IMG/VR virus record: IMGVR_UViG_3300020205_002210
Location: 57,250-121,249 of that record
From: a virus
DNA: 64,000 nucleotides
Strand: one strand, 5' to 3'
In this document: piece after piece, positions 20,922 to 46,615 of the stretch
How the letters are laid out: every line of letters begins with the position of its first letter
Position numbering within the stretch: position 1 is the stretch's first letter
Notes under the pieces: generated by a model
What the model was told of the DNA's origin: nothing
The model's input: only the letters and a program-made list of their open reading frames with translations
Databases searched by the model: none
Program-made: the position numbers and the translations under genes

Positions 20922-21529
20922 ACACTACCGATGATATAATTTTATATGATACCGCTGCGGTATCAAAAGTTGAACCTTCTGAACCATCAATAAAAACTTA
21001 TGAGTTGGTGCCAGTACAATCATCTTCATTGTATAAGGTTATGCCAGAATTTGATTTCGCATCACCGCCAATTAATCCAATTGAATTGGCATCCTCTCTA
21101 GTAGAAACTTGCCGTAAATATAATGGACTCGGTTTGTCTTCCAATCAATGTGGGCTTTTGCACCGTGTATTTGTGATGGGTACTGGTGATGAATATGTGG
21201 CATATTTTAATCCTAAATTAATTTCCACAGAAGATGAAGTACACATGGAAGAAGGTTGTCTGTCGGTACCATATCTAATGTTAAACATCACTCGACCAAA
21301 AAAGATAACGGTAGAATACCAAGACTACAATGGCACAAATCGCAAGGCAACTTTTGAAGGTATGACTGCAAGATGTTTCTTACATGAGCTTGACCACATG
21401 AACGGAATAATGTATACTGATAAAGTGAAACCTCTTGCATTACAGTTTGGCATTAAAAAGATGCAAAAGATGTACCAAAAGATTTCTAAACAAATGCGAA
21501 TGATTAAACAGATGAAAACTAAAAAATAA
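20918..21529 (+). CDS. def: Peptide deformylase
   Basis: GLGLSSNQ, EEGCLS, HELDH motifs. Confidence 0.93.
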   Translation: MNTTDDIILYDTAAVSKVEPSEPSIKTYELVPVQSSSLYKVMPEFDFASPPINPIELASSLVETCRKYNGLGLSSNQCGLLHRVFVMGTGDEYVAYFNPKLISTEDEVHMEEGCLSVPYLMLNITRPKKITVEYQDYNGTNRKATFEGMTARCFLHELDHMNGIMYTDKVKPLALQFGIKKMQKMYQKISKQMRMIKQMKTKK

Positions 21530-22794
21530 TGGCCACACCTATAGATTATGTTGATGCTCAGTGGGACAAATGGCAAACACTTAATGATCCTACACGATTC
21601 GATCATATAGACACCGAGCAACTGAAAGAAACTTTGGTGAAAGACCTCACATATGCATCCAAGATGGATGTGCGTGAGTATACCTTGTATCAGAAGTGGT
21701 TAGAAGTACATGAGAAATATCCCACCAGGACAATCACCACTTTGTTTGGTGATGATGTTCAATTGGTAGATGTTACACAAAAGAACCTTGTTGATAAGGT
21801 TAAAAAGAATTTCTGGATGCCAGAAGGTCCAGATGATTATGAAAAGTTAAAACCTAAATTGGTTCTCTCAAACGGACCTTTGGCCGAGACTTGGAATACA
21901 GTAAGAACATTTTCATCCACAATGAAGAATAATTCAAATATTGGTCGTAATCTATTCTACACCGTGGTCGATGAGAATAGTGATAAGTATCTTGGAGTTA
22001 TCTGTATATCATCCGACTTCTTGGATTTAACTCCAAGAGATACTGCAATTGGATGGCCAAGAGATGTTAAGACACAACAAGGTATGATTAATCATACTGC
22101 AATTGGATCCACAATCGTTCCATTACAACCATTAGGTTTTAATTACATGGGCGGTAAATTGTTGGCACTACTATGTCTTGCTGATACTGTTCAGAAAGAT
22201 TGGAAAAGACAATACGATGATGTTCTCGTTGGAGTTACTACCACATCTCTTTATGGTAACACCAAAGCAAACGGTCTTTCTCAGTATGATGGACTTGAAC
22301 ATTGGAACAAGATGGGATTTTCTAGTGGTTCGGTTGCATTCGAACCTTCCAGAAAAACCAGAGCATTGATTTATGATTGGGTTAAAGAGAACTATCCACG
22401 AAAATATTTCGAATGGTGGGAAGCCAAGAATCCAAAAGGTCTGCCGCTTAAACGCGACCACAAAAACCGTACATTAAATTTTGCATATGGTAAGTTAAGT
22501 ATTCCAAAAGAACTTATCCGCACCGAACATCAGAGGGGCATATACTTCTCTCCTCTGTATAACAACACCAATGAGTATCTAAGGAAAGAAATTGGTGATG
22601 TTGATCTGGTAAAATCATTTGATACCAGTGAAGAAACTTTGGCAAACATTTGGAAACAAAAATATGCCAAAGGTCGTATATCAATGTTGAAGAAAAAGAA
22701 CACTGTCTCCTATGAGAACTTGTTTTATGATGACTTGATTTACCTTTCTTGGGAAGAAACCAAGAACAAATATCTACCACAAGTTGGCAGATAA
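21529..22794 (+). CDS. DUF4338 / Druantia DruA-like protein (copy 1)
   Basis: GRNL...YLGVICISSD..L.PRD..IGW, P.GFNYMGGKLLA, W..QY...LVGVTTTSLYG pattern. Confidence 0.7.
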   Translation: MATPIDYVDAQWDKWQTLNDPTRFDHIDTEQLKETLVKDLTYASKMDVREYTLYQKWLEVHEKYPTRTITTLFGDDVQLVDVTQKNLVDKVKKNFWMPEGPDDYEKLKPKLVLSNGPLAETWNTVRTFSSTMKNNSNIGRNLFYTVVDENSDKYLGVICISSDFLDLTPRDTAIGWPRDVKTQQGMINHTAIGSTIVPLQPLGFNYMGGKLLALLCLADTVQKDWKRQYDDVLVGVTTTSLYGNTKANGLSQYDGLEHWNKMGFSSGSVAFEPSRKTRALIYDWVKENYPRKYFEWWEAKNPKGLPLKRDHKNRTLNFAYGKLSIPKELIRTEHQRGIYFSPLYNNTNEYLRKEIGDVDLVKSFDTSEETLANIWKQKYAKGRISMLKKKNTVSYENLFYDDLIYLSWEETKNKYLPQVGR

Positions 22795-28811: not shown

Positions 28812-28889
28812 GGGCCTCTAGCTCATGTTGGTTAGAGCAGTGGACTCATAATCCATTGGTGCCGTGTTCGACTCACGGGGGGCCCACCA
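28812..28889 (+). tRNA. tRNA-Ile2 (CAT, lysidine type) most likely
   Basis: Cloverleaf GGGCCTC/GGGGCCC-A-CCA, loop CTCATAA, resembles E. coli ileX. Confidence 0.8.
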
Positions 28890-28908
28890 TCTTTATAATA
28901 GGAATATA

Positions 28909-29349
28909 ATGAAAACTAAATTCTTGGAGGCATACATGAAGGTTGCCGAAAGTTTTTCTGGACTTTCATCAGCCAAAAGACTACAAGTCGGCGCAATTGT
29001 TGTCAAAGAAGACCGTATCATCTCTATTGGTTACAATGGAATGCCTTCAGGTTGGGACAATGAATGTGAAGAATTGGTCCATCGGATTGCCGAAGAACCA
29101 ATATTGAAAACTAAACCAGAAGTTCTCCATGCGGAAACAAATGCTATTGCAAAACTGGCAAAAAGTTCGGAGTCTGGTAATAATGCTAGCATTTTTATAA
29201 CACATGCTCCATGTCTCGACTGTGCAAAATTAATTTACCAGTCTGGCATCAATTCGGTATATTACCGAAATGCATATAGAAATGAAGATGGTGTTAAATT
29301 CTTGCATAAAGCCGGCATAAGAGTAGCAAAGATTGAAACCGCTAAATAG
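28909..29349 (+). CDS. cd: dCMP deaminase
   Basis: VGAIVVK, GYNG, HAETNA, PCLDC zinc motifs. Confidence 0.92.
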   Translation: MKTKFLEAYMKVAESFSGLSSAKRLQVGAIVVKEDRIISIGYNGMPSGWDNECEELVHRIAEEPILKTKPEVLHAETNAIAKLAKSSESGNNASIFITHAPCLDCAKLIYQSGINSVYYRNAYRNEDGVKFLHKAGIRVAKIETAK

Positions 29350-29385
29350 ATAAGGTGTAACAATACTAACTTTGGGGGAGGTACT

Positions 29386-29901
29386 ATGCAGGTTAACATA
29401 ATTAATTGTCCTGATGTAGATTTTAAACCTTTCGTACAGAGGGCCACTCAGTTTTTTGCCAAAGAACTTATTACAAATTCACGCATAAGAAACAATTGCC
29501 ATGTTGAAATACGCTTTGATAACAAGTTAACTGAGTATGGTTATGCAAGTATTGTTGATTATAATTCAAGAAAAAAGCCAAGAAACTTCTTAATAGAAAT
29601 TCACTCTAAGTTAGGTTCCAGAAGAATACTCAGTACATTATCACATGAGATGGTACACATCAAACAGTATATTGAAGGCGAAACAAACGACCAATTAACC
29701 ACATGGCGTGGTAAAAAGATTAATCCGGACGAAGTGGACTATTGGATTCAACCTTGGGAAATTGATGCATACGGAAGAGAAACTGGTTTGTTGACAAAGT
29801 TTGCAATCTCAGAAAATCTTTGGGAAATATTTACGGATTTTGTTAATCCAGCAGGTCCAATCCGTACACATCCTATAGCGTGGAAAAATAATTTAAAATA
29901 A
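29386..29901 (+). CDS. Putative zinc metallopeptidase
   Basis: LSHEMVHIKQY (HExxH) plus PWEIDAY. Confidence 0.7.
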   Translation: MQVNIINCPDVDFKPFVQRATQFFAKELITNSRIRNNCHVEIRFDNKLTEYGYASIVDYNSRKKPRNFLIEIHSKLGSRRILSTLSHEMVHIKQYIEGETNDQLTTWRGKKINPDEVDYWIQPWEIDAYGRETGLLTKFAISENLWEIFTDFVNPAGPIRTHPIAWKNNLK

Positions 29902-29915
29902 ATTTGAAAAACCGC

Positions 29916-29944
29916 TTGCCAAGGCTAAAAGTTTACTATATAAT
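29916..29944 (+). promoter_or_regulatory. Sigma70-type promoter upstream of leader/attenuator
   Basis: TTGCCA-17nt-TATAAT. Confidence 0.75.
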
Positions 29945-29977
29945 ACAAACATCGTTAAGAAATTTAGAAAGAACAAA

Positions 29978-30150
29978 GTGTCCCTCATATCCTTTAAACC
30001 CTCATCGTTGCAGACGGAGTATCACACAAGTATTAATTGTGGTGATGCGTTATGGCGCGCCGGGTTTTGTGTACAAGGATTGGACGAATAAAAGTTCAAG
30101 TAAAAGATTCTTAACACAAGACCCTGTTCTAACAAACAGGGTTTTTTTTT
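29978..30150 (+). promoter_or_regulatory. Putative leader peptide (37 aa, 29978-30091) with terminator/antiterminator attenuator
   Basis: GGGTTTTGTGT (30062-72) can pair with ACACAAGACCC (30114-24), excluding terminator ACCCTGTT/AACAGGGT+T-run. Confidence 0.6.
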
Positions 30151-30192
30151 GCCTTTAAATTTTAATGTGTTGCAAGTAAACAACACACTGTA

Positions 30193-30221
30193 TTGACAAA
30201 CCATCGAGTTCGTTGTATAAT
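30193..30221 (+). promoter_or_regulatory. Consensus sigma70 promoter of the tRNA array
   Basis: TTGACA-17nt-TATAAT. Confidence 0.85.
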
Positions 30222-30256
30222 ACAGACTGTTCATTAAAAATTTGTTGTAGTTTTTC

Positions 30257-30330
30257 TCGGGGATTGTGTAGTGGTAGCACAGCAGACTTTGACTCTGTTA
30301 GTGAAGGTTCGATTCCTTCTTCCCGTACCA
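30257..30330 (+). tRNA. tRNA-Gln(TTG)
   Basis: Cloverleaf, loop CTTTGAC, CCA end. Confidence 0.9.
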
Positions 30331-30393
30331 TATAAAAACACACTGCCGAGCGGTCAAATTGCGTAAGCAGATGAGTAGTGTGTTTCTATATGG
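30328..30393 (+). ncRNA. Inter-tRNA long-stem element A
   Basis: CCATATA-A-AAACACACT pairs with AGTGTGTTT-C-TATATGG. Confidence 0.5.
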
Positions 30394-30483
30394 AAGATGA
30401 TGCAGCGGGGTTGGTCCTGCGACTGGCCTTGAAAACCAGGTTCTCTTAATCGGGATGGGGTTCGACTCCTCCGTCTTCCACCA
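30392..30483 (+). tRNA. tRNA-Ser(TGA)
   Basis: GGAAGAT/GTCTTCC, loop CTTGAAA, long variable arm, enlarged D-loop, A73. Confidence 0.85.
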
Positions 30484-30486
30484 AGT

Positions 30487-30558
30487 TTCTCGGTCAGTAC
30501 AGTGGGATGTGCAGGTAGACAATACACGGACAAGGTTCGAATCCAAACTGAGAATTCA
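30487..30558 (+). pseudogene. Degenerate tRNA-like element
   Basis: TTCTCGGT/ACTGAGAA closing stem, D-like arm, GGTTCGAATCC T-loop; no valid anticodon arm or CCA. Confidence 0.4.
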
Positions 30559-30576
30559 ATATTGTTGGGAGTTAAC

Positions 30577-30753
30577 ATGCAAGAAAATTTAATTTATCGT
30601 TTAAGAAAGCGTGCTGAAATTCGCAGACAGATTCCTACAAGAAAATCGGTGCAAGAAAATACACCGGATAGAATTGCAGATTTACTAGAAGAAGCTGCGA
30701 ATAGGATTGAAGAATTGGAGAGTGGGCAGGATGGTAATGCAGCTGATTGCTAA
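30577..30753 (+). CDS. Small hypothetical protein whose 3' end overlaps tRNA-Ser(GCT)
   Basis: GGGAG RBS; MQENLIYRLRKRAEIRRQIPTRKSVQENTPDRIADLLEEAANRIEELE. Confidence 0.65.
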   Translation: MQENLIYRLRKRAEIRRQIPTRKSVQENTPDRIADLLEEAANRIEELESGQDGNAADC

Positions 30754-30806
30754 TCAGTAGGCCGTAGAAATGCGGCCACAGGGTTCGACTCCCTGACTCT
30801 CCACCA
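30717..30806 (+). tRNA. tRNA-Ser(GCT)
   Basis: GGAGAGT/ACTCTCC, loop TTGCTAA, long variable arm, A73. Confidence 0.9.
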
Positions 30807-30812
30807 AAATAT

Positions 30813-30904
30813 ACCAGCGAGACTTGGGAGTCAGAGAGGTCTTATAAGCCTTTTAGCGCCAGATTAGCGTTCTTGAGAGAGTTCGATCCTCTCCGTTGGT
30901 ACCA
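30813..30904 (+). tRNA. Atypical tRNA, anticodon TAT (nominal Ile) with long variable arm and mini D-arm
   Basis: ACCAGCG/CGTTGGT-A-CCA; GAGGT-CTTATAA-GCCTT; AGCGC/GCGTT V-arm; GAGAG-TTCGATC-CTCTC. Confidence 0.7.
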
Positions 30905-30921
30905 AATTTTAGAAGTTATAT

Positions 30922-30997
30922 GTGCGTGTGACCCGAACGGTTAGGGAGCGGATTGCAAATCCGTATTATGCAGGTTCGATCCCTGTCACGCACTCCA
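30922..30997 (+). tRNA. tRNA-Cys(GCA)
   Basis: Cloverleaf, loop TTGCAAA, U73-CCA. Confidence 0.92.
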
Positions 30998-31004
30998 GAG
31001 ACAA

Positions 31005-31080
31005 GCACCATTCGTCTAACGGTTAGGACGCTGCCCTTTCAAGGCGGAAACGAGGAGTTCGATTCTCCCATGGTGTACCA
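31005..31080 (+). tRNA. tRNA-Glu(TTC)
   Basis: Cloverleaf, loop CTTTCAA, CCA. Confidence 0.92.
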
Positions 31081-31100
31081 AATTATTTTAAGGAGATAGT

Positions 31101-31139
31101 ATGAAGAAAAGTATCAAGACTCGAAAACGACAGGGGTGA
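31101..31139 (+). CDS. Possible micro-ORF (12 aa, MKKSIKTRKRQG) overlapping tRNA-Lys 5' end
   Basis: Strong AAGGAG RBS at correct spacing. Confidence 0.3.
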   Translation: MKKSIKTRKRQG

Positions 31140-31205
31140 AACTTTAAGGTGAAGTAACTGGCTTTTAACCAGTAAAACTCGGATCGTTCCCGAGCACCCC
31201 TACCA
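31132..31205 (+). tRNA. tRNA-Lys(TTT), ATCGTTC T-loop
   Basis: AGGGGTG/CACCCCT-A-CCA, loop CTTTTAA. Confidence 0.88.
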
Positions 31206-31280
31206 TAGATAAACACATTGGGATTAAATTCTGGTCACCCCAGCGCATAAGAGGTTGCGTACAGTGTGTTTTTCTATGGT
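31202..31280 (+). ncRNA. Inter-tRNA long-stem element B
   Basis: ACCATAGA-T-AAACACATTG pairs with CAGTGTGTTT-T-TCTATGGT; two inner hairpins. Confidence 0.5.
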
Positions 31281-31330
31281 GAAACTATTCAGGTTCAATG
31301 GTCACACGCCCTTGCTTGAAATAGAAGTTG

Positions 31331-31441
31331 CCATATTAAAGTATATTTCAGGTTGGGTTAGATTCGCGGTCTAACTATTTGGGATAAAAAGTCGGCGTAA
31401 TTGCAGGATAATAATCTAAGATACGGAATATACTTTAATAT
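31331..31441 (+). ncRNA. Inter-tRNA long-stem element C
   Basis: Perfect 15 bp ATATTAAAGTATATT/AATATACTTTAATAT after a GCCA; inner GTTAGA/TCTAAC hairpin. Confidence 0.45.
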
Positions 31442-31447
31442 GTAAAC

Positions 31448-31533
31448 GGAGATGTGGCAGAGTGGTTGATTGCACCAGACTGTAAATCTGGCCCCTAAAA
31501 AGCGCGGTGGTTCAAATCCATCCGTCTCCACCA
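31448..31533 (+). tRNA. tRNA-Tyr(GTA)
   Basis: Cloverleaf, loop CTGTAAA, variable arm, CCA. Confidence 0.92.
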
Positions 31534-31616
31534 AAACAAGAGTACAGGCTCTTTATAAATCCTGTCTTTGTGTGGAACCGAGCAATGCTCCTGCTTGTAT
31601 AAGTATCGGTTCAATT

Positions 31617-31690
31617 GGGGGATTAGTATAATGGGATTACGGCAGCTTTGCAAGCTGTTTACGGGAGTTCGATCCTCCCATCCTCCACCA
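31617..31690 (+). tRNA. tRNA-Ala(TGC)
   Basis: G3:U70 pair, loop TTTGCAA, CCA. Confidence 0.93.
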
Positions 31691-31698
31691 TAGTTTTA

Positions 31699-31773
31699 GG
31701 TTTCAAAGTGTTCATGGACGCACGTAGGCTTGTCACGCCTAAAGAAGGGGATCGTTACCCCTTGAGACCGCCA
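31699..31773 (+). tRNA. tRNA-Asp(GTC), ATCGTTA T-loop
   Basis: GGTTTCA/TGAGACC-G-CCA, loop TTGTCAC. Confidence 0.88.
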
Positions 31774-31778
31774 AGTTT

Positions 31779-31869
31779 GGATGTAATAGTTGGTACGAGT
31801 GGGCATAAATTGCTTGTCCATGACATGTTTCGAGCATGAAGGTTGGTTCGATTCCAACAGCATCCACCA
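31779..31869 (+). ncRNA. tRNA-like RNA with aberrant D and anticodon arms
   Basis: GGATGT/GCATCC-A-CCA, GTTGG-TTCGATT-CCAAC, CATG/CATG variable arm, 9-nt loop TAAATTGCT. Confidence 0.55.
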
Positions 31870-31877
31870 AGTTTTAT

Positions 31878-31956
31878 TCCGCAGAACCCGAGCAAGGTGC
31901 ATGGGCGTGACTGTTAATCACTGGTTAGTAGAGTTCGATTCTCTAATGCGGAGCCA
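31878..31956 (+). tRNA. tRNA-Asn(GTT)
   Basis: Loop CTGTTAA, G73-CCA. Confidence 0.88.
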
Positions 31957-31963
31957 AGTTTTT

Positions 31964-32037
31964 CTCTGATTGGTGAAATGGTATCATCCGTGCTTTGGGA
32001 GCATGTGGCGCAAGTTCGATTCTTGCATCGGAGACCA
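31964..32037 (+). tRNA. tRNA-Pro(TGG)
   Basis: CTCTGAT/ATCGGAG-A-CCA, loop TTTGGGA. Confidence 0.9.
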
Positions 32038-32049
32038 AAAAATGTAAAT

Positions 32050-32134
32050 GCTCTGATGGTGGAATAGGTAGACACAAGAGACTTAAAATCTCTCGCCTTC
32101 GGGTGTGCCGGTTCGATTCCGGCTCGGAGCACCA
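32050..32134 (+). tRNA. tRNA-Leu(TAA)
   Basis: Loop CTTAAAA, variable arm, A73-CCA. Confidence 0.93.
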
Positions 32135-32139
32135 AGTTA

Positions 32140-32214
32140 AGTTCTATGACGTAGACGGATGCGTACCGGCTTCATAAGCCGAGGAGATTGGATCGTTACC
32201 AATTAGAACTACCA
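32140..32214 (+). tRNA. tRNA-Met(CAT) elongator-like, ATCGTTA T-loop
   Basis: AGTTCTA/TAGAACT-A-CCA, loop TTCATAA. Confidence 0.8.
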
Positions 32215-32220
32215 GATTAT

Positions 32221-32295
32221 GGGTCTTTAGTAAAATGAATATTACACTGGGCTACGAACCCGGAAGTGGGAGTTTGATTCTCTCAAGACCCTCCA
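32221..32295 (+). tRNA. tRNA-Arg(ACG)
   Basis: GGGTCTT/AAGACCC-T-CCA, loop CTACGAA. Confidence 0.88.
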
Positions 32296-32497
32296 AGACG
32301 TTCCGCTTTGTTAGCGGATACTGTGACCCGCAGGATGAGAAGTGAGGTGACTCTCACGGGTGGTAGTCTTTAAACCGAAAGGCCGCTAGCAATGCGATAA
32401 CGGTCCCTGTCGGGAAGCGGGTGGAAGGTGTGTGAGATTTGCGGAGAAATCCAAGAGATGATGCACTATAATTACCGCCGAGGGATGCAGAGCATAT
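32296..32497 (+). ncRNA. Unclassified ~200 nt GC-rich multi-helix, pseudoknotted RNA
   Basis: At least seven helices; ACCCGC/GCGGGT crosses GGTGGTAGT/ATTACCGCC; no convincing ORF. Confidence 0.7.
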
Positions 32498-32571
32498 ACC
32501 CATATAGCTCAAAGGTAGAGCACTGGCTTGATAAGCCATAGACGAAGGATCGTTACCTTCTGTGGGTACCA
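32498..32571 (+). tRNA. tRNA-Ile(GAT), ATCGTTA T-loop
   Basis: ACCCATA/TGTGGGT-A-CCA, loop TTGATAA. Confidence 0.88.
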
Positions 32572-32579
32572 GATTTTAT

Positions 32580-32656
32580 TACGGTGTAGTTCCAATTGGC
32601 AGAACGATGGTCTCCAAAATCATATGTTGTGGGTTCGAATCCCTCCGCCGTAGCCA
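32580..32656 (+). tRNA. tRNA-Trp(CCA)
   Basis: Loop CTCCAAA, G73-CCA. Confidence 0.92.
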
Positions 32657-32677
32657 GTTTTTAAAAAGGTGAATAAT

Positions 32678-33169
32678 ATGAAAAAGTTCGATGTAAATGA
32701 AGTTAAGTCCTTCCTTGCAAAACAAGGACCAAACACCAAAGTCTACCTTGGTGCCGATTCTGAACGCATCAGAATAAACGGAGTTTGGTATGCAGACTAT
32801 GCTCTTGCAGTCGTTGTTCATATTAATGGCCAAAATGGTTGTAAAATTTTTGGATATGTTCAACGTGAATTGGACTATGACCATAAAAAAAGTAAACCTG
32901 CAATGCGATTGATGACAGAAGTATATAAAGTTTCAGAGTTGTTCCAAGAAATGCAGGATGTTCTGGAAGATTTTCATGTTGAAGTTCATTTAGACTTGAA
33001 CAAGGATGATGTACACGGAAGTTCTTGTGTGGTACAACAAGCAATTGGTTATATCAAAGGTACATGTAACATGACACCAATGGTTAAACCAGATGCGCCT
33101 GCAGCAAGTTTCTGTGCTGATAGATTGAAAAGAATCTTAGCTGAACAAGAAACTTCAATTGTTCAGTAA
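32678..33169 (+). CDS. RNase H-like protein (DUF458/YkuK type)
   Basis: VYLGADS, RLMTEVYK, VEVHLDLN acidic motifs. Confidence 0.75.
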   Translation: MKKFDVNEVKSFLAKQGPNTKVYLGADSERIRINGVWYADYALAVVVHINGQNGCKIFGYVQRELDYDHKKSKPAMRLMTEVYKVSELFQEMQDVLEDFHVEVHLDLNKDDVHGSSCVVQQAIGYIKGTCNMTPMVKPDAPAASFCADRLKRILAEQETSIVQ

Positions 33170-33172
33170 TAT

Positions 33173-33248
33173 GTTGTCGTTAGTGTAATGGTTAGCACCA
33201 GAGATTGTGAATCTCTTAGCATGGGTTCGAATCCCATACGTCAACCCA
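33173..33248 (+). tRNA. tRNA-His(GTG)
   Basis: G-1:C73, loop TTGTGAA. Confidence 0.92.
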
Positions 33249-33255
33249 AAATAAT

Positions 33256-33329
33256 GCCTCGGTAGTTTAATGGTAGAACGGCATCCTTACACGGTGCATA
33301 CGGGAGTTCGATTCTCCAACGAGGTACCA
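33256..33329 (+). tRNA. tRNA-Val(TAC)
   Basis: Loop CTTACAC, CCA. Confidence 0.9.
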
Positions 33330-33334
33330 AATAT

Positions 33335-33410
33335 GCAACCTTAGCTGATGTGGTCATAGCGGCGGTCTGAAGAGCCGTTGAAGTAGGTTCGATTCCTACA
33401 GGTTGCACCA
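33335..33410 (+). tRNA. tRNA-Phe(GAA)
   Basis: Loop CTGAAGA, CCA. Confidence 0.9.
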
Positions 33411-33414
33411 GATT

Positions 33415-33492
33415 GCCCCCGTGGACAAATTGGCAAAGTCATCTCTCTCAAAAGGAGAAATTCTCTCGGTTCGACTCCGAGCGGGGGTACCA
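33415..33492 (+). tRNA. tRNA-Leu(CAA), short variable region
   Basis: Loop CTCAAAA, A73-CCA. Confidence 0.88.
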
Positions 33493-33551
33493 TGTAGAAT
33501 CCTTGTGCTTGCCTTGTAATGTAATTTGTGTTATATTATAGTTTAAATAAT

Positions 33552-33628
33552 GCCCCGGTGACGGAATTGGTATACGTGTTGGTCTTAGAAACCAAATTTT
33601 AGGAGTTCGAGTCTCCTCTGGGGCACCA
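33552..33628 (+). tRNA. tRNA-Leu(TAG), short variable region
   Basis: Loop CTTAGAA, A73-CCA. Confidence 0.88.
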
Positions 33629-33633
33629 GTTAT

Positions 33634-33708
33634 CCGGCCTTAGTATAATGGATAATACAGCGGTCTTCTACACCGTGAATATGGGTTCGATTCCTGTAGG
33701 CCGGACCA
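33634..33708 (+). tRNA. tRNA-Arg(TCT)
   Basis: Loop CTTCTAC, CCA. Confidence 0.9.
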
Positions 33709-33743
33709 AGTTGTAATGTGATAGTTATTTAAAGAAAGTAAAT

Positions 33744-33911
33744 ATGAAACCGACAAAAACATTTAATCTCAGCAAACGCACCAAAACAATGATGACATTG
33801 ATGCCGTTCAAAGATCAAGAAACTCGTAATGCTTTTAAACGTATGATGATTGATGCTCAGCTTTGCAGTGAGATTGTTCCAAAGAATTCAAAAGAAAAGA
33901 ATTCTGATTAA
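33744..33911 (+). CDS. Small basic hypothetical protein (55 aa)
   Basis: MKPTKTFNLSKRTKTMMTLMPFKDQETRNAFKRMMIDAQL... fills the spacer between two tRNAs. Confidence 0.55.
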   Translation: MKPTKTFNLSKRTKTMMTLMPFKDQETRNAFKRMMIDAQLCSEIVPKNSKEKNSD

Positions 33912-33912
33912 T

Positions 33913-33987
33913 GCGGGTATGGTGCTAGTGGTAACACATGACCTTGCCAAGGTTAAGTTGAGAGTTCGATTCTCTCTACCCGCTCCA
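33913..33987 (+). tRNA. tRNA-Gly(GCC)
   Basis: Loop TTGCCAA, U73-CCA. Confidence 0.92.
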
Positions 33988-34037
33988 GTTAACACGGCCT
34001 TTGCCTCTAAATTTTTTTACGCAAAGGTTCTTTTTTT

Positions 34038-34112
34038 GCCCCTTTATCCTTAATGGTAGAGGTCCGGTTTTGTAGTCCGGGTGCGTGAGTTCGATTCTTG
34101 CAAGGGGCACCA
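34038..34112 (+). tRNA. tRNA-Thr(TGT)
   Basis: Loop TTTGTAG, CCA. Confidence 0.9.
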
Positions 34113-34135
34113 ATTGGTATATTTTAAGAAAAGTA

Positions 34136-34164
34136 TTGACTACAACAAATTTTTAATGTATACT
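34136..34164 (+). promoter_or_regulatory. Sigma70-type promoter
   Basis: TTGACT-17nt-TATACT. Confidence 0.7.
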
Positions 34165-34184
34165 TGATGCATATATAGTATTAT

Positions 34185-34258
34185 GCGGGATTCGTAAAAT
34201 GGTATTACCTTAGATTTCCAATCTAAAGTCAACAGTTCGATTCTGTTATCCCGCTCCA
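34185..34258 (+). tRNA. tRNA-Gly(TCC)
   Basis: Loop TTTCCAA, U73-CCA. Confidence 0.92.
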
Positions 34259-34276
34259 AATAATAAAGAACAAAAT

Positions 34277-34828
34277 ATGCACAACTCAGCAATTAGAATT
34301 GGCGAATTATTTTTTGATACTTATTCAGAAAATTTTACAAAAGACGAAAATGTAAAACCAATTACACTTGAAGTCGGTTGTGGACCAAATGAAGTTCTAA
34401 AAAACAAAGCCATCAAAATGGGTTTTGATTATCACGGTGTAGATCAAGTACATACAGATAATCCGGATGACATATATAGATTACCATTTGAAGATGCTTC
34501 TGTTGATGTTGTGGTATCTTCAAGTTGTTTTGAACATGATTGTTTTTTTTGGTTAACTTTTTTGGAGATTATGAGAGTGCTTAAACCAAAAGGTTTATTC
34601 TATCTTAATGCACCAAGTAAAGGTGGTTTTCATCAACATCCAATTGATTGTTTTAGATTTTATCCCGATGCAGGATTTGCACTAGAAAAATGGGGTAAAA
34701 AGAATCGTATGGATGTAAAGATGTTACAATCCAATACAGATACAACTGAATCATGGAATGATTATGTTGCAATATTTTTACGCGATAGTAAATTTGAAAG
34801 TGAATTTACAAAGAGGATGAGTATTTAA
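34277..34828 (+). CDS. Class I SAM-dependent methyltransferase
   Basis: LEVGCG, LPFEDASVDVVVSSSCFEH, RVLKPKG. Confidence 0.88.
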   Translation: MHNSAIRIGELFFDTYSENFTKDENVKPITLEVGCGPNEVLKNKAIKMGFDYHGVDQVHTDNPDDIYRLPFEDASVDVVVSSSCFEHDCFFWLTFLEIMRVLKPKGLFYLNAPSKGGFHQHPIDCFRFYPDAGFALEKWGKKNRMDVKMLQSNTDTTESWNDYVAIFLRDSKFESEFTKRMSI

Positions 34829-34834
34829 GTTTTT

Positions 34835-34899
34835 GCGGTCGTTTATAACAATTGTGGGGTCCACCTACAATCTTGGTGAGAATCCGAGTGACCGCTCCA
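34835..34899 (+). ncRNA. D-armless tRNA-Gly(TCC)-like mini RNA (65 nt)
   Basis: GCGGTCG/TGACCGC-T-CCA; TTGTGG..TCC..CTACAA arm; CTTGG-TGAGAAT-CCGAG T-arm. Confidence 0.65.
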
Positions 34900-34913
34900 T
34901 TTTTGAGGACATT

Positions 34914-35159
34914 ATGATTATTAAGCCACTACACGATAAGGTTTTGATTGAACGATTAGATTCAATTAAAGAGACTGCTTCTGGAATTATCCTCAAACAT
35001 TCTGAAGAACCGGATCGAGCCAAAGTGATAGAGATTGGACCTGAAGTTACTGAGGTTCAAGTTGGTGATGTTGTACAACCCGATTGGGGTAAAGCCACCA
35101 AAGTACAAGATTACTTCATAATTAAAATTGAAGACATTGCATACATTTACGAAAAATAA
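34914..35159 (+). CDS. groES: GroES co-chaperonin
   Basis: IKPLHDKVLI, TASGIIL, V..IGP.V..V.VGD.V. Confidence 0.9.
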   Translation: MIIKPLHDKVLIERLDSIKETASGIILKHSEEPDRAKVIEIGPEVTEVQVGDVVQPDWGKATKVQDYFIIKIEDIAYIYEK

Positions 35160-35161
35160 AT

Positions 35162-35341
35162 ATGTCTGATGGTGGTAAAGGTTCAACTCCGAGACCGTTT
35201 AGTGTTTCGCAGAAAACATACGCGGATAACTACAACGCAATTTTTAGGAAGAAAACTCCACAAGAATTAGATGACGCAAAGGCCGAAGATGAAGCCTTTG
35301 AAAGTCTCAAATCAGATTCTATATCTGATGGTAAGAAATAG
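35162..35341 (+). CDS. Small hypothetical protein (59 aa)
   Basis: MSDGGKGSTPRPFSVSQKTYADNYNAIFRKK...; fills the gap between groES and tRNA. Confidence 0.55.
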   Translation: MSDGGKGSTPRPFSVSQKTYADNYNAIFRKKTPQELDDAKAEDEAFESLKSDSISDGKK

Positions 35342-35412
35342 CGGATTGGTGAAATGGTATCACAGTGGGCTCATAATCCTCAGTTCCGGTTCGACTCCGA
35401 GGTCCGCAACCA
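35340..35412 (+). tRNA. tRNA-fMet(CAT)-like
   Basis: Unpaired 1:72, G-rich anticodon stem GTGGG-CTCATAA-TCCTC, A73-CCA. Confidence 0.75.
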
Positions 35413-35413
35413 A

Positions 35414-36055
35414 TTAAAGTTGTAACAGCATTTCAGCTTCAGGTATTCTGGTGCGAGTATTCTTACTCCCCAGAATCACCACAATTTTCTGTTTGTACAT
35501 CATTACGATGCAACCACCAGACATATTAATAAAACCCGTTTTACTTATAGTCAAATCATATTTGCCAACCAATGAGTTGGTGTTACCACTTAATGTCTGG
35601 CTAGATTTTACTATTTCTGGATATTGACTCGCAGCTTTTACTATTTCAATAAGTTCTTTTGCGGTACTGACATTGAACATGGACAGACCAGTTGGATCTA
35701 AAAATCTAGTATTTTTTAGCCCCATTAATTTAACTTTCCAGTTCATATCGTTTATACATCGACTCCTGCCACCAGGATAAGATTTGCATAGTAGGTCTGC
35801 TGAGGTGTTGTCTGATGATACAAGAGTTCGTTGGATCAGGTCCTGGTGACTTTTTGTTATTACATTTTTCTTTGCATCCAAAAAAGTCATCACGGTTATC
35901 AGTTTTGTGATGGAAGCTATAGATCGAATGGTAGACATATTCTCACCATCAATTATTTTACCTTCATCATACACTAACCAAGATTTTGCTGTAATGGTTG
36001 TAGCATAACAAGAAAATGCCAGCATCAAGCTGACGAAAGCCAATATTTTACGCAT
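35414..36055 (-). CDS. Secreted peptidase S11 (PBP7/DacA-like D-Ala-D-Ala peptidase)
   Basis: Signal peptide; SITK (SxxK), SDN (SxN), KTG motifs. Confidence 0.85.
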   Translation of the reverse strand: MRKILAFVSLMLAFSCYATTITAKSWLVYDEGKIIDGENMSTIRSIASITKLITVMTFLDAKKNVITKSHQDLIQRTLVSSDNTSADLLCKSYPGGRSRCINDMNWKVKLMGLKNTRFLDPTGLSMFNVSTAKELIEIVKAASQYPEIVKSSQTLSGNTNSLVGKYDLTISKTGFINMSGGCIVMMYKQKIVVILGSKNTRTRIPEAEMLLQL

Positions 36056-36080
36056 GTTTCTGATCCTGTAACCTAACACT

Positions 36081-44161: not shown

Positions 44162-45512
44162 TGAAGAGTACCTGCGAAAGGTACTTCCATTTTTAAAGCC
44201 AGATTATTTTACGGATAAAGTTGATAGAACGATTTATAATGAGATCGCTGCTTTCACAGACAAATACAATTCATCACCAACAATTGAAGCACTAAAACTA
44301 GCCGTCAAAGAAAAACGAACACTCTCAGAAGATGAAGTTGAAGGTTGTGATGCATCTCTCAAAGATATCGAACAGTCTAAAAACGAATTATCTAAAATTG
44401 AATGGCTCGTAGATAAAACAGAACAGTTCTGTCAGGAAAAAGCAATATATAATGCTGTGTTAGGTTCAATTTCAATCCTTGACGGCAAAGATAAAGTCAA
44501 TGATAAGGGTTCTATCCCAAAAATCCTATCTGATGCATTGGCAATCAGTTTTGACAATTCAGTAGGTCACGATTATTTGGAGAACACGGATGAACGATAT
44601 GAATTCTACCACAGAAAAGAAGAACGAATCCCTTTTGATTTGGATTTCTTTAACAAGATTACAAAAGGTGGTCTACCTACTAAAACGCTTAATATCGCTC
44701 TTGCCGGAACTGGCGTTGGAAAAAGTCTATTCATGTGTCATGTGGCTGCAGGTGCAATGGTGCAAGGCCGTAATGTACTGTACATCACTATGGAAATGGC
44801 TGAAGAACGGATTGCGGAAAGGATAGATGCAAATCTATTGAATGTTACTGTTGACGATCTTGTCAATTTATCTAAAGATATGTATGACAAAAAACTCACG
44901 AAACTGCGTGAGAAGACCGTTGGTAAACTTATTATCAAAGAATACCCAACGGCCTCAGCTAGTGCTACACATTTTAGGACATTATTGAATGAACTCAATC
45001 TTAAAAAATCTTTTGTTCCTGATATCATTTTTATTGATTACCTTAACATTTGTTGTAGTTCTAGGGTTAAGGCTGGAGCAAATGTCAACAGCTACACCTA
45101 TGTCAAATCAATTGCCGAAGAATTGCGAGGTCTTGCTGTTGAATTCGGAGTACCAATTGTTTCTGCTACACAAACAACTCGGGGAGGTTTCTCAAGTTCA
45201 GACCCCGGACTCGAAGACACTAGTGAGTCTTTTGGTTTGCCAGCAACAGCAGACTTGATGTTTGCTCTCATTTCATCAGAAGAGTTGGAAGAAATGGGAC
45301 AGATCATGGTGAAACAATTGAAGAATCGATATAATGATCCAACATATTACAAACGATTCACCCTCGGCATTGACAGGTCGAAAATGAGATTGTATGATGT
45401 GGAACAATCAGCACAAAATGATATTACCGATTCAGGCAAAGACAAACCACTAAACACATTTGGTGACCGTGAAAAGTCACAGAAGAAAAGTTTTTCAGGA
45501 TTTAAAGTATGA
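44121..45512 (+). CDS. gp41: Replicative DNA helicase
   Basis: AGTGVGKS, YITMEMAEE, FIDYLN, SATQTTR, QLKNRY. Confidence 0.97.
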   Translation: MKLEQTILKNLIYDEEYLRKVLPFLKPDYFTDKVDRTIYNEIAAFTDKYNSSPTIEALKLAVKEKRTLSEDEVEGCDASLKDIEQSKNELSKIEWLVDKTEQFCQEKAIYNAVLGSISILDGKDKVNDKGSIPKILSDALAISFDNSVGHDYLENTDERYEFYHRKEERIPFDLDFFNKITKGGLPTKTLNIALAGTGVGKSLFMCHVAAGAMVQGRNVLYITMEMAEERIAERIDANLLNVTVDDLVNLSKDMYDKKLTKLREKTVGKLIIKEYPTASASATHFRTLLNELNLKKSFVPDIIFIDYLNICCSSRVKAGANVNSYTYVKSIAEELRGLAVEFGVPIVSATQTTRGGFSSSDPGLEDTSESFGLPATADLMFALISSEELEEMGQIMVKQLKNRYNDPTYYKRFTLGIDRSKMRLYDVEQSAQNDITDSGKDKPLNTFGDREKSQKKSFSGFKV

Positions 45513-46615
45513 ACTTAACAAAGGTTGAAGCACTACATTGTGCATCTGTTTTTGAAAATTATTTTGGGAGTTTTAATCGTGTCGATGAATACATGCGTGA
45601 CCAGAAACTGGCATCTCTTGATGACCTATCTTCAAATCCTCTCTTCCCTTTAGAAGATGATTTATTTTCAGACTTCACCATGCATCCAAAAGATATGGAT
45701 TTTGAAGTATTGGAAATACCACAAGAGAAGTGGGAAAATTTATTGAATATTACCAGTTCTCATATTAACATTTCTCCAGTTGGGCGTCAAATAAGATTGG
45801 CTGTGTTGGAGAAGAATACAGGAAAGATTGTAGGATTCATTCGCCTTGGTTCACCAGTAATCAACATGAAGCCACGCAACGAAATGCTTAGACAAGTATT
45901 CACACAACAACCTGAATGGTCCAAGAGGTTCAATGAATCATCTATGATGGGTTTCGTTATTGTTCCATCACAACCTTTTGGTTATAATTATCTTGGTGGT
46001 AAATTACTTGCTGCAATTTGTACCTCGCATGAGGTGCGTGAAATTGTCAACAAAAAATACAATATGAATTTGTGTTTGTTTGAAACGACAAGTTTATATG
46101 GAAGTTCCAAAACGGTGTCACAGTATGATGGCATGAAACCTTACATTCGTTATAAAGGTTTAACCGATAGTGATTTCATACCGATGATGCACGGAAAAGC
46201 CTACGATGACTTACGCAGTTATGTAGAAAAACTGGTTGGTGATATTGTTGATGAAGATGTTTCAAGTAAGAAATTGAAAACTACAATGAAAATTGTTTCG
46301 CTTACCAAAGCAGCACTTAAAGGCAGTCCTGAAGGGGATACATTCATAGCAACGATTCAGAAGGCAAAAGGGTTGACAGAGCAAAAAAGATATTATTACA
46401 GTGACTATGGTTTCAAGAACATGGTAGAGTATGTTAAGTGTATGTCCGATATACTAATTCCTGGTGAAAACTATGAAAAACACAAAATGGTAAACTTGAT
46501 TGAATGGTGGAGAAACAAGGCGACAAATCGTTTTGAAACATTAAATGGTGATAATAGATTGAGAACTGAGTTGGAGGTTTGGACTTCTGGAAAGCCTATT
46601 GATATAATCAGATAA
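45509..46615 (+). CDS. DUF4338 / Druantia DruA-like protein (copy 2)
   Basis: GRQIRLAV...IVGFIRLGSP..NMKPRN, PFGYNYLGGKLLA, FETTSLYG. Confidence 0.7.
   Translation: MNLTKVEALHCASVFENYFGSFNRVDEYMRDQKLASLDDLSSNPLFPLEDDLFSDFTMHPKDMDFEVLEIPQEKWENLLNITSSHINISPVGRQIRLAVLEKNTGKIVGFIRLGSPVINMKPRNEMLRQVFTQQPEWSKRFNESSMMGFVIVPSQPFGYNYLGGKLLAAICTSHEVREIVNKKYNMNLCLFETTSLYGSSKTVSQYDGMKPYIRYKGLTDSDFIPMMHGKAYDDLRSYVEKLVGDIVDEDVSSKKLKTTMKIVSLTKAALKGSPEGDTFIATIQKAKGLTEQKRYYYSDYGFKNMVEYVKCMSDILIPGENYEKHKMVNLIEWWRNKATNRFETLNGDNRLRTELEVWTSGKPIDIIR

Follow-up and report, generated by a model that had tools for sequence, protein, structure and literature searches.

A mini tRNA-Gly-like RNA without a D arm in uncultured T4-like phages and its linkage to DruA/DUF4338 genes

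Staphylococcus aureus possesses extra tRNA-Gly isoacceptors, NP1-NP3, which are non-proteogenic and act as glycine donors for FmhB, FemA and FemB (PMC7826273). These RNAs are charged normally by glycyl-tRNA synthetase (GlyRS), interact poorly with EF-Tu and the ribosome, and are reserved for aminoacyl transferases of the GNAT fold, so that they form a pool apart from translation. Glycyl-tRNA also serves a phage enzyme of the same fold, Mom of phage Mu. Silva et al. (2026) reported that Mom moves glycine from Gly-tRNAGly to the N6 of adenine in double-stranded DNA, that it accepts all three E. coli isoacceptors and that it probably reads the acceptor end only; their paper mentions neither DruA nor phage-encoded carriers (PMC13219725). 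Mom uses the ordinary tRNAs of the host. Reduced tRNA shapes are found in other systems. The D-armless tRNA-Ser(AGN) of metazoan mitochondria has a short linker in place of the D arm, keeps the T arm and the 7-bp acceptor and has a longer anticodon stem; it retains a 7-nt anticodon loop and decodes on specialised ribosomes with an adapted EF-Tu. The t-elements of plant mitochondria and mascRNA have a small tRNA shape, in which the acceptor/T-arm stack is intact and the anticodon region is reduced, and keep no amino-acid identity set. On the protein side, the DruA of bacterial type I Druantia, a member of the family PF14236 (DUF4338), acts with DruB-E in defence. In the literature searched we found no paper on the biochemistry of bacterial DruA, and none linking DruA to GNAT chemistry or to tRNA.

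The RNA described here is a mini tRNA-Gly-like gene of 65 nt with its CCA end encoded (34835-34899), and searches of Rfam 15 and the literature returned no family or paper that describes it. The DNA analysed (the window, 64,000 nucleotides; features lie on its plus strand unless stated otherwise) comes from an IMG/VR contig of 121 kb with a completeness of about 72%. Its source is an uncultured lake T4-like phage, by gene content that includes a portal protein, a gp23-like head protein, a gp43 polymerase and a gp41 helicase. ARAGORN places 26 tRNA genes within 28812-35412, among them two canonical tRNA-Gly genes that are also recognised by Rfam, one with a GCC anticodon (33913-33987) and one with UCC (34185-34258), as a first reading of the sequence without database searches (the sequence-only reading) had noted. 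A search with our covariance model (R1) found the mini-tRNA with 87.8 bits as the sole match in both the window and the 121-kb record, in which its copy number is therefore one; the two true tRNA-Gly genes were the next-best scorers. Two other ARAGORN calls in the array, a 92-nt tRNA-Ile(TAT) (30813-30904) and a tRNA-Asp(GTC) (31699-31773), fail to match an Rfam tRNA at the gathering score, and the long tRNA-Ile(TAT) call may be a false or an unusual tRNA. The tRNA-Met(CAT) at 35340-35412 scores low in Rfam, at 34 bits where the cut-off is 29; it follows a small ChaB-like ORF and is parted from the main array by a GroES-like gene. Directly past the tRNA region, on the opposite strand, lies a Peptidase_S11 (D-Ala-D-Ala carboxypeptidase) gene (35414-36079, minus strand), which the sequence-only reading had named as another possible partner and which is tied to the mini-tRNA by local synteny only.

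The minimum free energy fold of the mini-tRNA has -23.9 kcal/mol (z = -2.9), and 0 of 200 shuffled sequences fold as well. The acceptor stem pairs 34835-34841 with 34889-34895 through six Watson-Crick pairs and a G7-U66 wobble; G1, C2, G3 and G4 are invariant in the family and pairs 5-7 covary. Its 3' part (34889-34899) continues into the discriminator U73 (34896), which is present in 46/46 parsed family members, and the CCA (34897-34899). In place of the D arm the fold gives a 9-nt linker (34842-34850), one nucleotide shorter than the loop of 10 nt first proposed, with a conserved motif (U/G)AACA at its 3' end. The T-like arm (34872-34888) has a 5-bp stem (34872-34876 with 34884-34888) and the 7-nt loop UGAGAAU (34877-34883), and keeps U54, R57, A58 and G53:C61, with a G at position 55 and position 56 free. 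Between linker and T-like arm stands the central hairpin (34851-34871), an 8-bp stem (34851-34858 with 34864-34871) closed by the pentaloop GUCCA (34859-34863), in which the CC at 34861-34862 is invariant in the family. The acceptor pairing, the U73-CCA end, the T arm and the TCC at 34860-34862 followed by A all stand in the sequence as the sequence-only reading had given them. Its view that the TCC is presented in the manner of mitochondrial D-armless tRNAs has to be revised, as the triplet lies within a pentaloop closed by an 8-bp stem whose closing pair covaries.

The mini-tRNA thus combines a canonical half, comprising the 7-bp acceptor, the 5-bp T stem with G53:C61, the U54...A58 spacing in a 7-nt loop and the discriminator-CCA end, with a central loop that lacks the canonical anticodon arrangement of 7 nt, U33 and unpaired positions 32 and 38; a G precedes the TCC in the window. 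ARAGORN did not call it in its bacterial or mitochondrial modes, and with -mt and -mtmam gave no plus-strand call for the window mini-tRNA or for 10 variants. Rfam 15 gave no match to it at the gathering score or even at E <= 10, and nine further family members score under the RF00005 gathering threshold. A recent duplication of a resident tRNA-Gly was considered as its origin and rejected, since pairwise alignment scores with the resident tRNA-Gly genes are no higher than those with other tRNAs.

Comparison across phage contigs confirmed that the mini-tRNA is a real, widely conserved structured RNA, with about 100 distinct relatives of the same shape in IMG/VR phage contigs. A search with the GroES-like protein encoded next to it retrieved 27 related IMG/VR loci, and 27/27 carry, just upstream of the GroES-like gene, a homologous element of 64-70 nt that starts 5-8 nt past a tRNA-Gly(UCC); these elements comprise 11 distinct sequences whose differences are mostly paired. 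A pattern search for the 3' end of a tRNA-Gly followed by a short GCGG...CCGC-U-CCA unit matched at least 120 viral contigs; G+C-rich chance matches were dropped from this set, and each remaining sequence, folded alone, gives the mini-tRNA shape. In a gap-free MAFFT alignment of 10 homologues (A2), 97.5% of cells are paired and 11/20 pairs show compensatory change; 0/500 shuffles reach the observed pairing and slid alignments give 35-47%. The larger alignment of 54 distinct sequences made with the covariance model (A3) has 95.6% of cells paired and a covariation score of 0.79, against 0.07-0.10 when slid, and an alignment of 13 sequences of a separate 67-nt type (A4) has 98.1% of cells paired. 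Overall, 95-98% of cells are paired in the three alignments compared with 35-50% in slid controls, so that the conservation with covariation which the sequence-only reading had made a touchstone of its proposal is present. A blastn search of the mini-tRNA against GenBank phages found no relative.

Invariant in the family are G1:C72, C2:G71, G3:C70, G4:C69, U73, the CCA, the equivalent of G53:C61, the T-loop bases U54, A58 and U60, and two adjacent Cs of the central loop. Variable are acceptor pairs 5-7, all other stem pairs and T-loop position 56. The T loop of the family reads U-G-N-R-A-A-U, with G in place of the universal U/Psi at position 55. The central loops measure 3-5 nt, with tetraloops CCCC or CCCA, or smaller loops, in some lineages; the base 5' of the loop CC is U, G, A or C across the family, ACC being a common loop type, and the closing pair covaries (in A3, GC 22, AU 10, UA 10, CG 3, GU 3). 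In one 66-nt relative (L101, minus strand) the T arm is canonical (GGTTCGAGTCC), a small D-like hairpin is present and the pentaloop is GUCCA, which gives this RNA the look of a transitional form between an ordinary tRNA-Gly and the minis. Many phages carry tandem mini-tRNA pairs (for example L125:2465-2602, L139:5916-6058 and L292:2816-2959), often of differing loop types, a UCC-type followed by a GCC-, ACC- or CCC-type. Such pairs suggest that two paralogous carriers are maintained next to each other, perhaps in parallel with the two DruA paralogues described below.

The bacterial GlyRS identity set comprises U73, G1-C72, C2-G71 (and G3-C70), C35 and C36 (PMC9976931), and the family-invariant positions coincide with it, if the two loop Cs are assigned to C35 and C36 by their position in the loop. 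What is gone from the mini-tRNA are the features of decoding, namely the 7-nt loop with U33, the D-loop/T-loop elbow and Psi55-C56. Because the GlyRS set is invariant and the decoding features are lost, the conservation pattern points to the synthetase, and not the ribosome, as the probable reader of this RNA. Together, the fold, the covariation and the invariant identity positions support the original proposal of a D-armless tRNA-Gly derivative that retains the GlyRS identity elements. Codon reading is very unlikely on this comparative evidence, given that the loop-closing pair covaries. The idea that the mini-tRNA is a working, if odd, decoding tRNA-Gly, which reads GGN codons in the style of mitochondrial D-armless tRNAs, seems to us scarcely credible. 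It would fit the constant presence of NCC in the loop, and D-armless tRNAs are functional in animal mitochondria according to the literature. However, the covarying closing pair reduces the loop to 3-5 nt instead of 7, the window copy has no U33, ACC versions are common, two canonical tRNA-Gly genes stand alongside, and even the mitochondrial mode of ARAGORN rejects the mini-tRNA. ACC is not used for decoding by bacteria, and the EF-Tu and ribosomes of bacteria are not known to be adapted to tRNAs without arms.

The mini-tRNA sits in an 85-nt gap between a SAM-methyltransferase-like ORF of 183 amino acids (34277-34828; Pfam Methyltransf_11), which separates it from tRNA-Gly(UCC), and the GroES/Cpn10-like gene (34914-35159; PF00166), whose start lies 15 nt past the CCA end. 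A sigma-70-like promoter match (34136-34164; 10/12 positions, a consensus match only) lies 20 nt upstream of tRNA-Gly(UCC) and may drive transcription of tRNA-Gly, the methyltransferase ORF, the mini-tRNA and the GroES-like gene. The methyltransferase ORF is missing from close relatives; one close relative (L014) and one RNA-library contig join position 34258 to 34834 with a spacing of only 5-6 nt. The ORF is an indel cassette that sits precisely where the CCA end of tRNA-Gly(UCC) would otherwise adjoin the mini-tRNA. Homologues of this ORF elsewhere stand in unrelated contexts and the regions downstream of them show no synteny with the mini-tRNA. Contigs from RNA libraries of two lake studies span the mini-tRNA, although such contigs cannot prove transcription, its level, the ends of the RNA or its charging.

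The position of the CCA end, 15 nt before the GroES-like start codon in an arrangement kept in 27 loci, could also mean that the mini-tRNA is a t-element, which would recruit RNase P and the 3' processing enzymes and do nothing else than free a GroES-like mRNA with a short leader. The acceptor/T-arm stack needed by RNase P is intact. Nevertheless, we regard this explanation as highly improbable, because the downstream context in the family is variable (another tRNA, other genes or a hairpin), in many lineages the RNA forms an independent unit with its promoter and a hairpin, so that no mRNA would need processing, and a cleavage signal requires neither U73 nor the identity of G1-G3 nor the loop CC; moreover, real tRNAs already adjoin. 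Unlike t-elements and mascRNA, the mini-tRNA is most conserved at the glycine identity positions and is often a stand-alone gene. Two further regulatory readings of the window copy were rejected. The terminator scan found no intrinsic terminator, and the downstream context varies, so that a terminator is not indicated. A pairing of the loop GUCC with a GGAC of the GroES Shine-Dalgarno region is lost in ACC-type relatives that share the leader, and is attributed to chance.

The window encodes two proteins that pass the cut-off of PF14236 (27 bits), the family of type I Druantia DruA. The first, DruA1 (21529-22794; 421 amino acids, 72.6 bits, with a GNAT-fold core at residues 102-354 in its model), is the proposed user of the mini-tRNA and its gene comes after the gp46/47-like nuclease genes. 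The second, the paralogue DruA2 (45509-46615; 368 amino acids, 40.9 bits), is encoded directly after a DnaB/gp41-like helicase gene. Whereas the bacterial DruA acts together with DruB-E, the phage DruA-like genes appear to stand alone in replication modules. In the window the mini-tRNA lies within the tRNA array, 12 kb from DruA1 and 10.6 kb from DruA2. Other lineages bring the two together: among loci collected by the RNA alone, ten have a DruA1-like gene that ends about 60 nt before one or two mini-tRNAs, with a TTGACA-17-TATAAT promoter between the gene and the RNAs and a hairpin after the RNAs. ARAGORN found no canonical tRNA in the seven of these DruA1-adjacent loci that were scanned (up to 14.6 kb). 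In a reverse test, the DruA1-like protein of one such locus (L122) was used as the query and retrieved 80 loci on different contigs, with 61-100% protein identity; 77 of these have sufficient downstream sequence to be assessed, and 62 of the 77 carry one or two mini-tRNAs no more than 400 nt past the DruA1 stop codon, mostly preceded by a TTGACA-17-TATAAT promoter. At least five further loci have a mini-tRNA within 1.5 kb. The mini-tRNAs of the reverse-test loci amount to 30 different sequences, and one type among them, 63 nt long, has little sequence in common with the window copy. An arrangement next to DruA2 (L089 type) was retrieved in two identical loci only and is thus uninformative.

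The co-occurrence in phage genomes that the sequence-only reading had proposed as a check is also found, PF14236 being present in 14/14 RNA-positive IMG/VR records, including 6/6 T4-like records at least 98% complete, as opposed to 2/6 records without the mini-tRNA. These records are related to one another, and the adjacency is therefore the stronger evidence. The tight placement of the mini-tRNA gene directly behind a DruA-type gene in related phages suggests a private glycine carrier for the DruA-type enzyme. The linkage as such leaves the direction free, as the RNA could be the substrate, the inhibitor or a regulator of the enzyme. Instead of donating glycine, the RNA might bind the DruA GNAT enzyme as a substrate mimic, and so check a potentially toxic tRNA-directed activity or itself be modified. 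The adjacency of gene and RNA with a separate promoter recalls protein-RNA pairs, and some GNAT enzymes (AtaT, TacT) do act on aminoacyl-tRNA (cited in PMC13219725). This role as regulator or antidote is nonetheless quite unlikely in our judgement, given that conservation of the complete GlyRS identity set, with the loop CC, argues for charging, and that the DruA genes belong to the replication modules of T4-like phages that are lytic and depend on translation.

The same linkage bears on the possibility that the mini-tRNA, charged or not, mimics the acceptor end of tRNA-Gly and is a decoy or sponge for toxins or defence enzymes that attack tRNA-Gly, and protects the translating pool. Phages carry tRNAs as counter-defence, the RNA is useless in decoding and it is located in the tRNA arrays of many phages. 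Candidate attackers would be GNAT toxins of the TacT/AtaT2 type, which acetylate Gly-tRNAGly, and CCA-end-modifying enzymes; the conserved U73 and G71 are features read by TacT (PMC9976931). We consider a decoy unlikely, as it leaves the repeated tight placement behind the DruA1-like gene with its own promoter unexplained, and as the loop CC is invariant although toxins of the acceptor end need no CC, while GlyRS reads it.

Cultured phages add to the comparison. DruA-like genes occur in 31/50,697 GenBank phage records only; their named hosts are all Pelagibacter or Synechococcus, and the ten records that were opened are all Kyanoviridae. A structural descriptor found no D-armless form in four whole genomes of cultured DruA-bearing phages. 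The pelagiphage HTVC008M has two DruA genes, and its sole tRNA gene is an aberrant tRNA-Gly(ACC); this 74-nt gene (L259:11940-12013, plus strand) is located between the two DruA-like genes. Pelagibacter phage Mosig, which also carries DruA, has a 74-nt aberrant tRNA-Gly(ACC)-like gene (L263:7779-7852, minus strand) that ARAGORN missed. In both RNAs the T loop is non-canonical (non-TPsiC) and zipping of the anticodon stem can leave a loop of 3 nt. They look like full-length relatives of the ACC-type minis. The DruA-bearing phages S-SSM7 and S-PRM1 have ordinary-looking tRNA-Gly only, which indicates that the mini form is not required by the DruA enzyme family.

The nature of the partner enzyme was approached through its structure. 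DruA1 was modelled with AlphaFold from 51 diverse sequences at a pLDDT of 95, and residues 102-354 of the model adopt a GNAT fold. The top solved match by VIA-align is Mom of phage Mu (8bv8; Z 10.0, rmsd 4.0 Å, 171 residues aligned), followed by SpeG and AAC(6') at Z 9.0-9.4 over about 147 residues, which by the program's own rule is a tie with Mom. Mom is thus nominally the best structural match of the DruA1 core. Foldseek gives a weak match between DruA1 and the Mom structure (E 0.023), and among predicted viral structures (BFVD) the first named match outside the family is a Mom protein (E 3e-3). The same database contains clear structural relatives of DruA1 in the giant viruses Faunusvirus, Yasminevirus and Dasosvirus (E 1e-9 to 6e-20), some of them embedded in much longer proteins. 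The N-terminal domain of DruA1, folded alone (pLDDT 69), had no informative match (best Z 4.2), and a DNA-binding domain is neither supported nor opposed by this result. The sequence-only reading had speculatively tied the mini-tRNA to the two DruA proteins, with Fem-type and Mom-family use of Gly-tRNA as precedents. The tie to the proteins gains comparative support from the RNA gene directly behind the DruA1-like gene in other lineages, whereas by sequence the DruA proteins are not Mom-family: hhalign of the DruA1 family against Mu Mom gives a probability of 1% and no sequence homology, and the Mom family PF25680 is absent from the 121-kb record. The DruA-like proteins are, furthermore, about twice as long as Mom and have extra N- and C-terminal domains. 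The use of Gly-tRNA by Mom, as stated in that reading, is correct (PMC13219725).

Upon the observed structure, conservation, covariation, invariant-base pattern and gene linkage, we propose that the mini-tRNA is a non-decoding glycyl carrier for DruA-like enzymes, a reading to which we assign a probability of roughly 55%. The RNA would be made together with the neighbouring tRNAs, or from its own promoter in other lineages, and be freed by RNase P and 3' trimming, for which the acceptor/T-arm stack and the encoded CCA are intact. The host GlyRS would then charge it, reading G1:C72, C2:G71, G3:C70, U73 and the two loop cytosines, which would stand for C35 and C36. Since it lacks the D arm, the elbow and Psi55-C56 and its loop of 3-5 nt is closed, the glycylated RNA would not function in the ribosomal A site, and the Gly-miniRNA pool would consequently be kept separate from translation. 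Phage GNAT-fold enzymes of the DruA/DUF4338 type would take the activated glycine from this pool for transfer. The weakest step is the target of the transfer, which would most likely be phage DNA, on the analogy with Mu Mom and because both DruA genes stand in replication/recombination modules.

The logic proposed for the phage RNA is that of NP1-NP3: an extra tRNA-Gly with normal charging and poor access to translation, reserved for GNAT-fold transferases. NP1-NP3 are, however, full cloverleaves with 7-nt anticodon loops, and are cellular and feed peptidoglycan synthesis; the mini-tRNA is phage-encoded, has no D arm and a closed 3-5 nt loop, is linked to DUF4338/DruA and falls outside the NP lineage. 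It differs from the mitochondrial D-armless tRNAs in its closed small loop and its origin in a bacterial virus. To our knowledge Mom has no dedicated RNA. Staphylococcal non-proteogenic tRNA-Gly donors (PMC7826273) and tRNA-dependent DNA glycylation by Mom are already known; new are the armless closed-loop architecture in a phage, its spread in lake and marine T4-like phages and its tie to DUF4338/DruA.

If the proposal is true, armless tRNAs would for the first time be known from a source other than animal mitochondria. The mini-tRNA would also be the first RNA of tRNA descent whose sole purpose is to carry an amino acid to an enzyme, and its natural variation would separate the features of tRNA-Gly that serve charging from those that serve decoding. 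Experiments are feasible, since the cultured phages HTVC008M and Mosig carry the related aberrant tRNA-Gly(ACC) together with DruA genes. The proposal would also provide a testable biochemical function for DUF4338/DruA, a family that forms part of the Druantia defence and is common among the T4-like phages that infect Pelagibacter, Synechococcus and lake bacteria. More broadly and distinctly more tentatively, DruA/DUF4338 proteins, including the DruA of Druantia, may be aminoacyl-tRNA-dependent transferases, which T4-like phages of lakes and oceans would have paired with a purpose-built, ribosome-blind mini tRNA-Gly. Carrier and transferase would make up a two-part system for the glycylation of phage DNA, or of some other target, that leaves the translation pool untouched. 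In that case the tRNA-dependent DNA modification known from Mom would extend to a large group of environmentally abundant phages.
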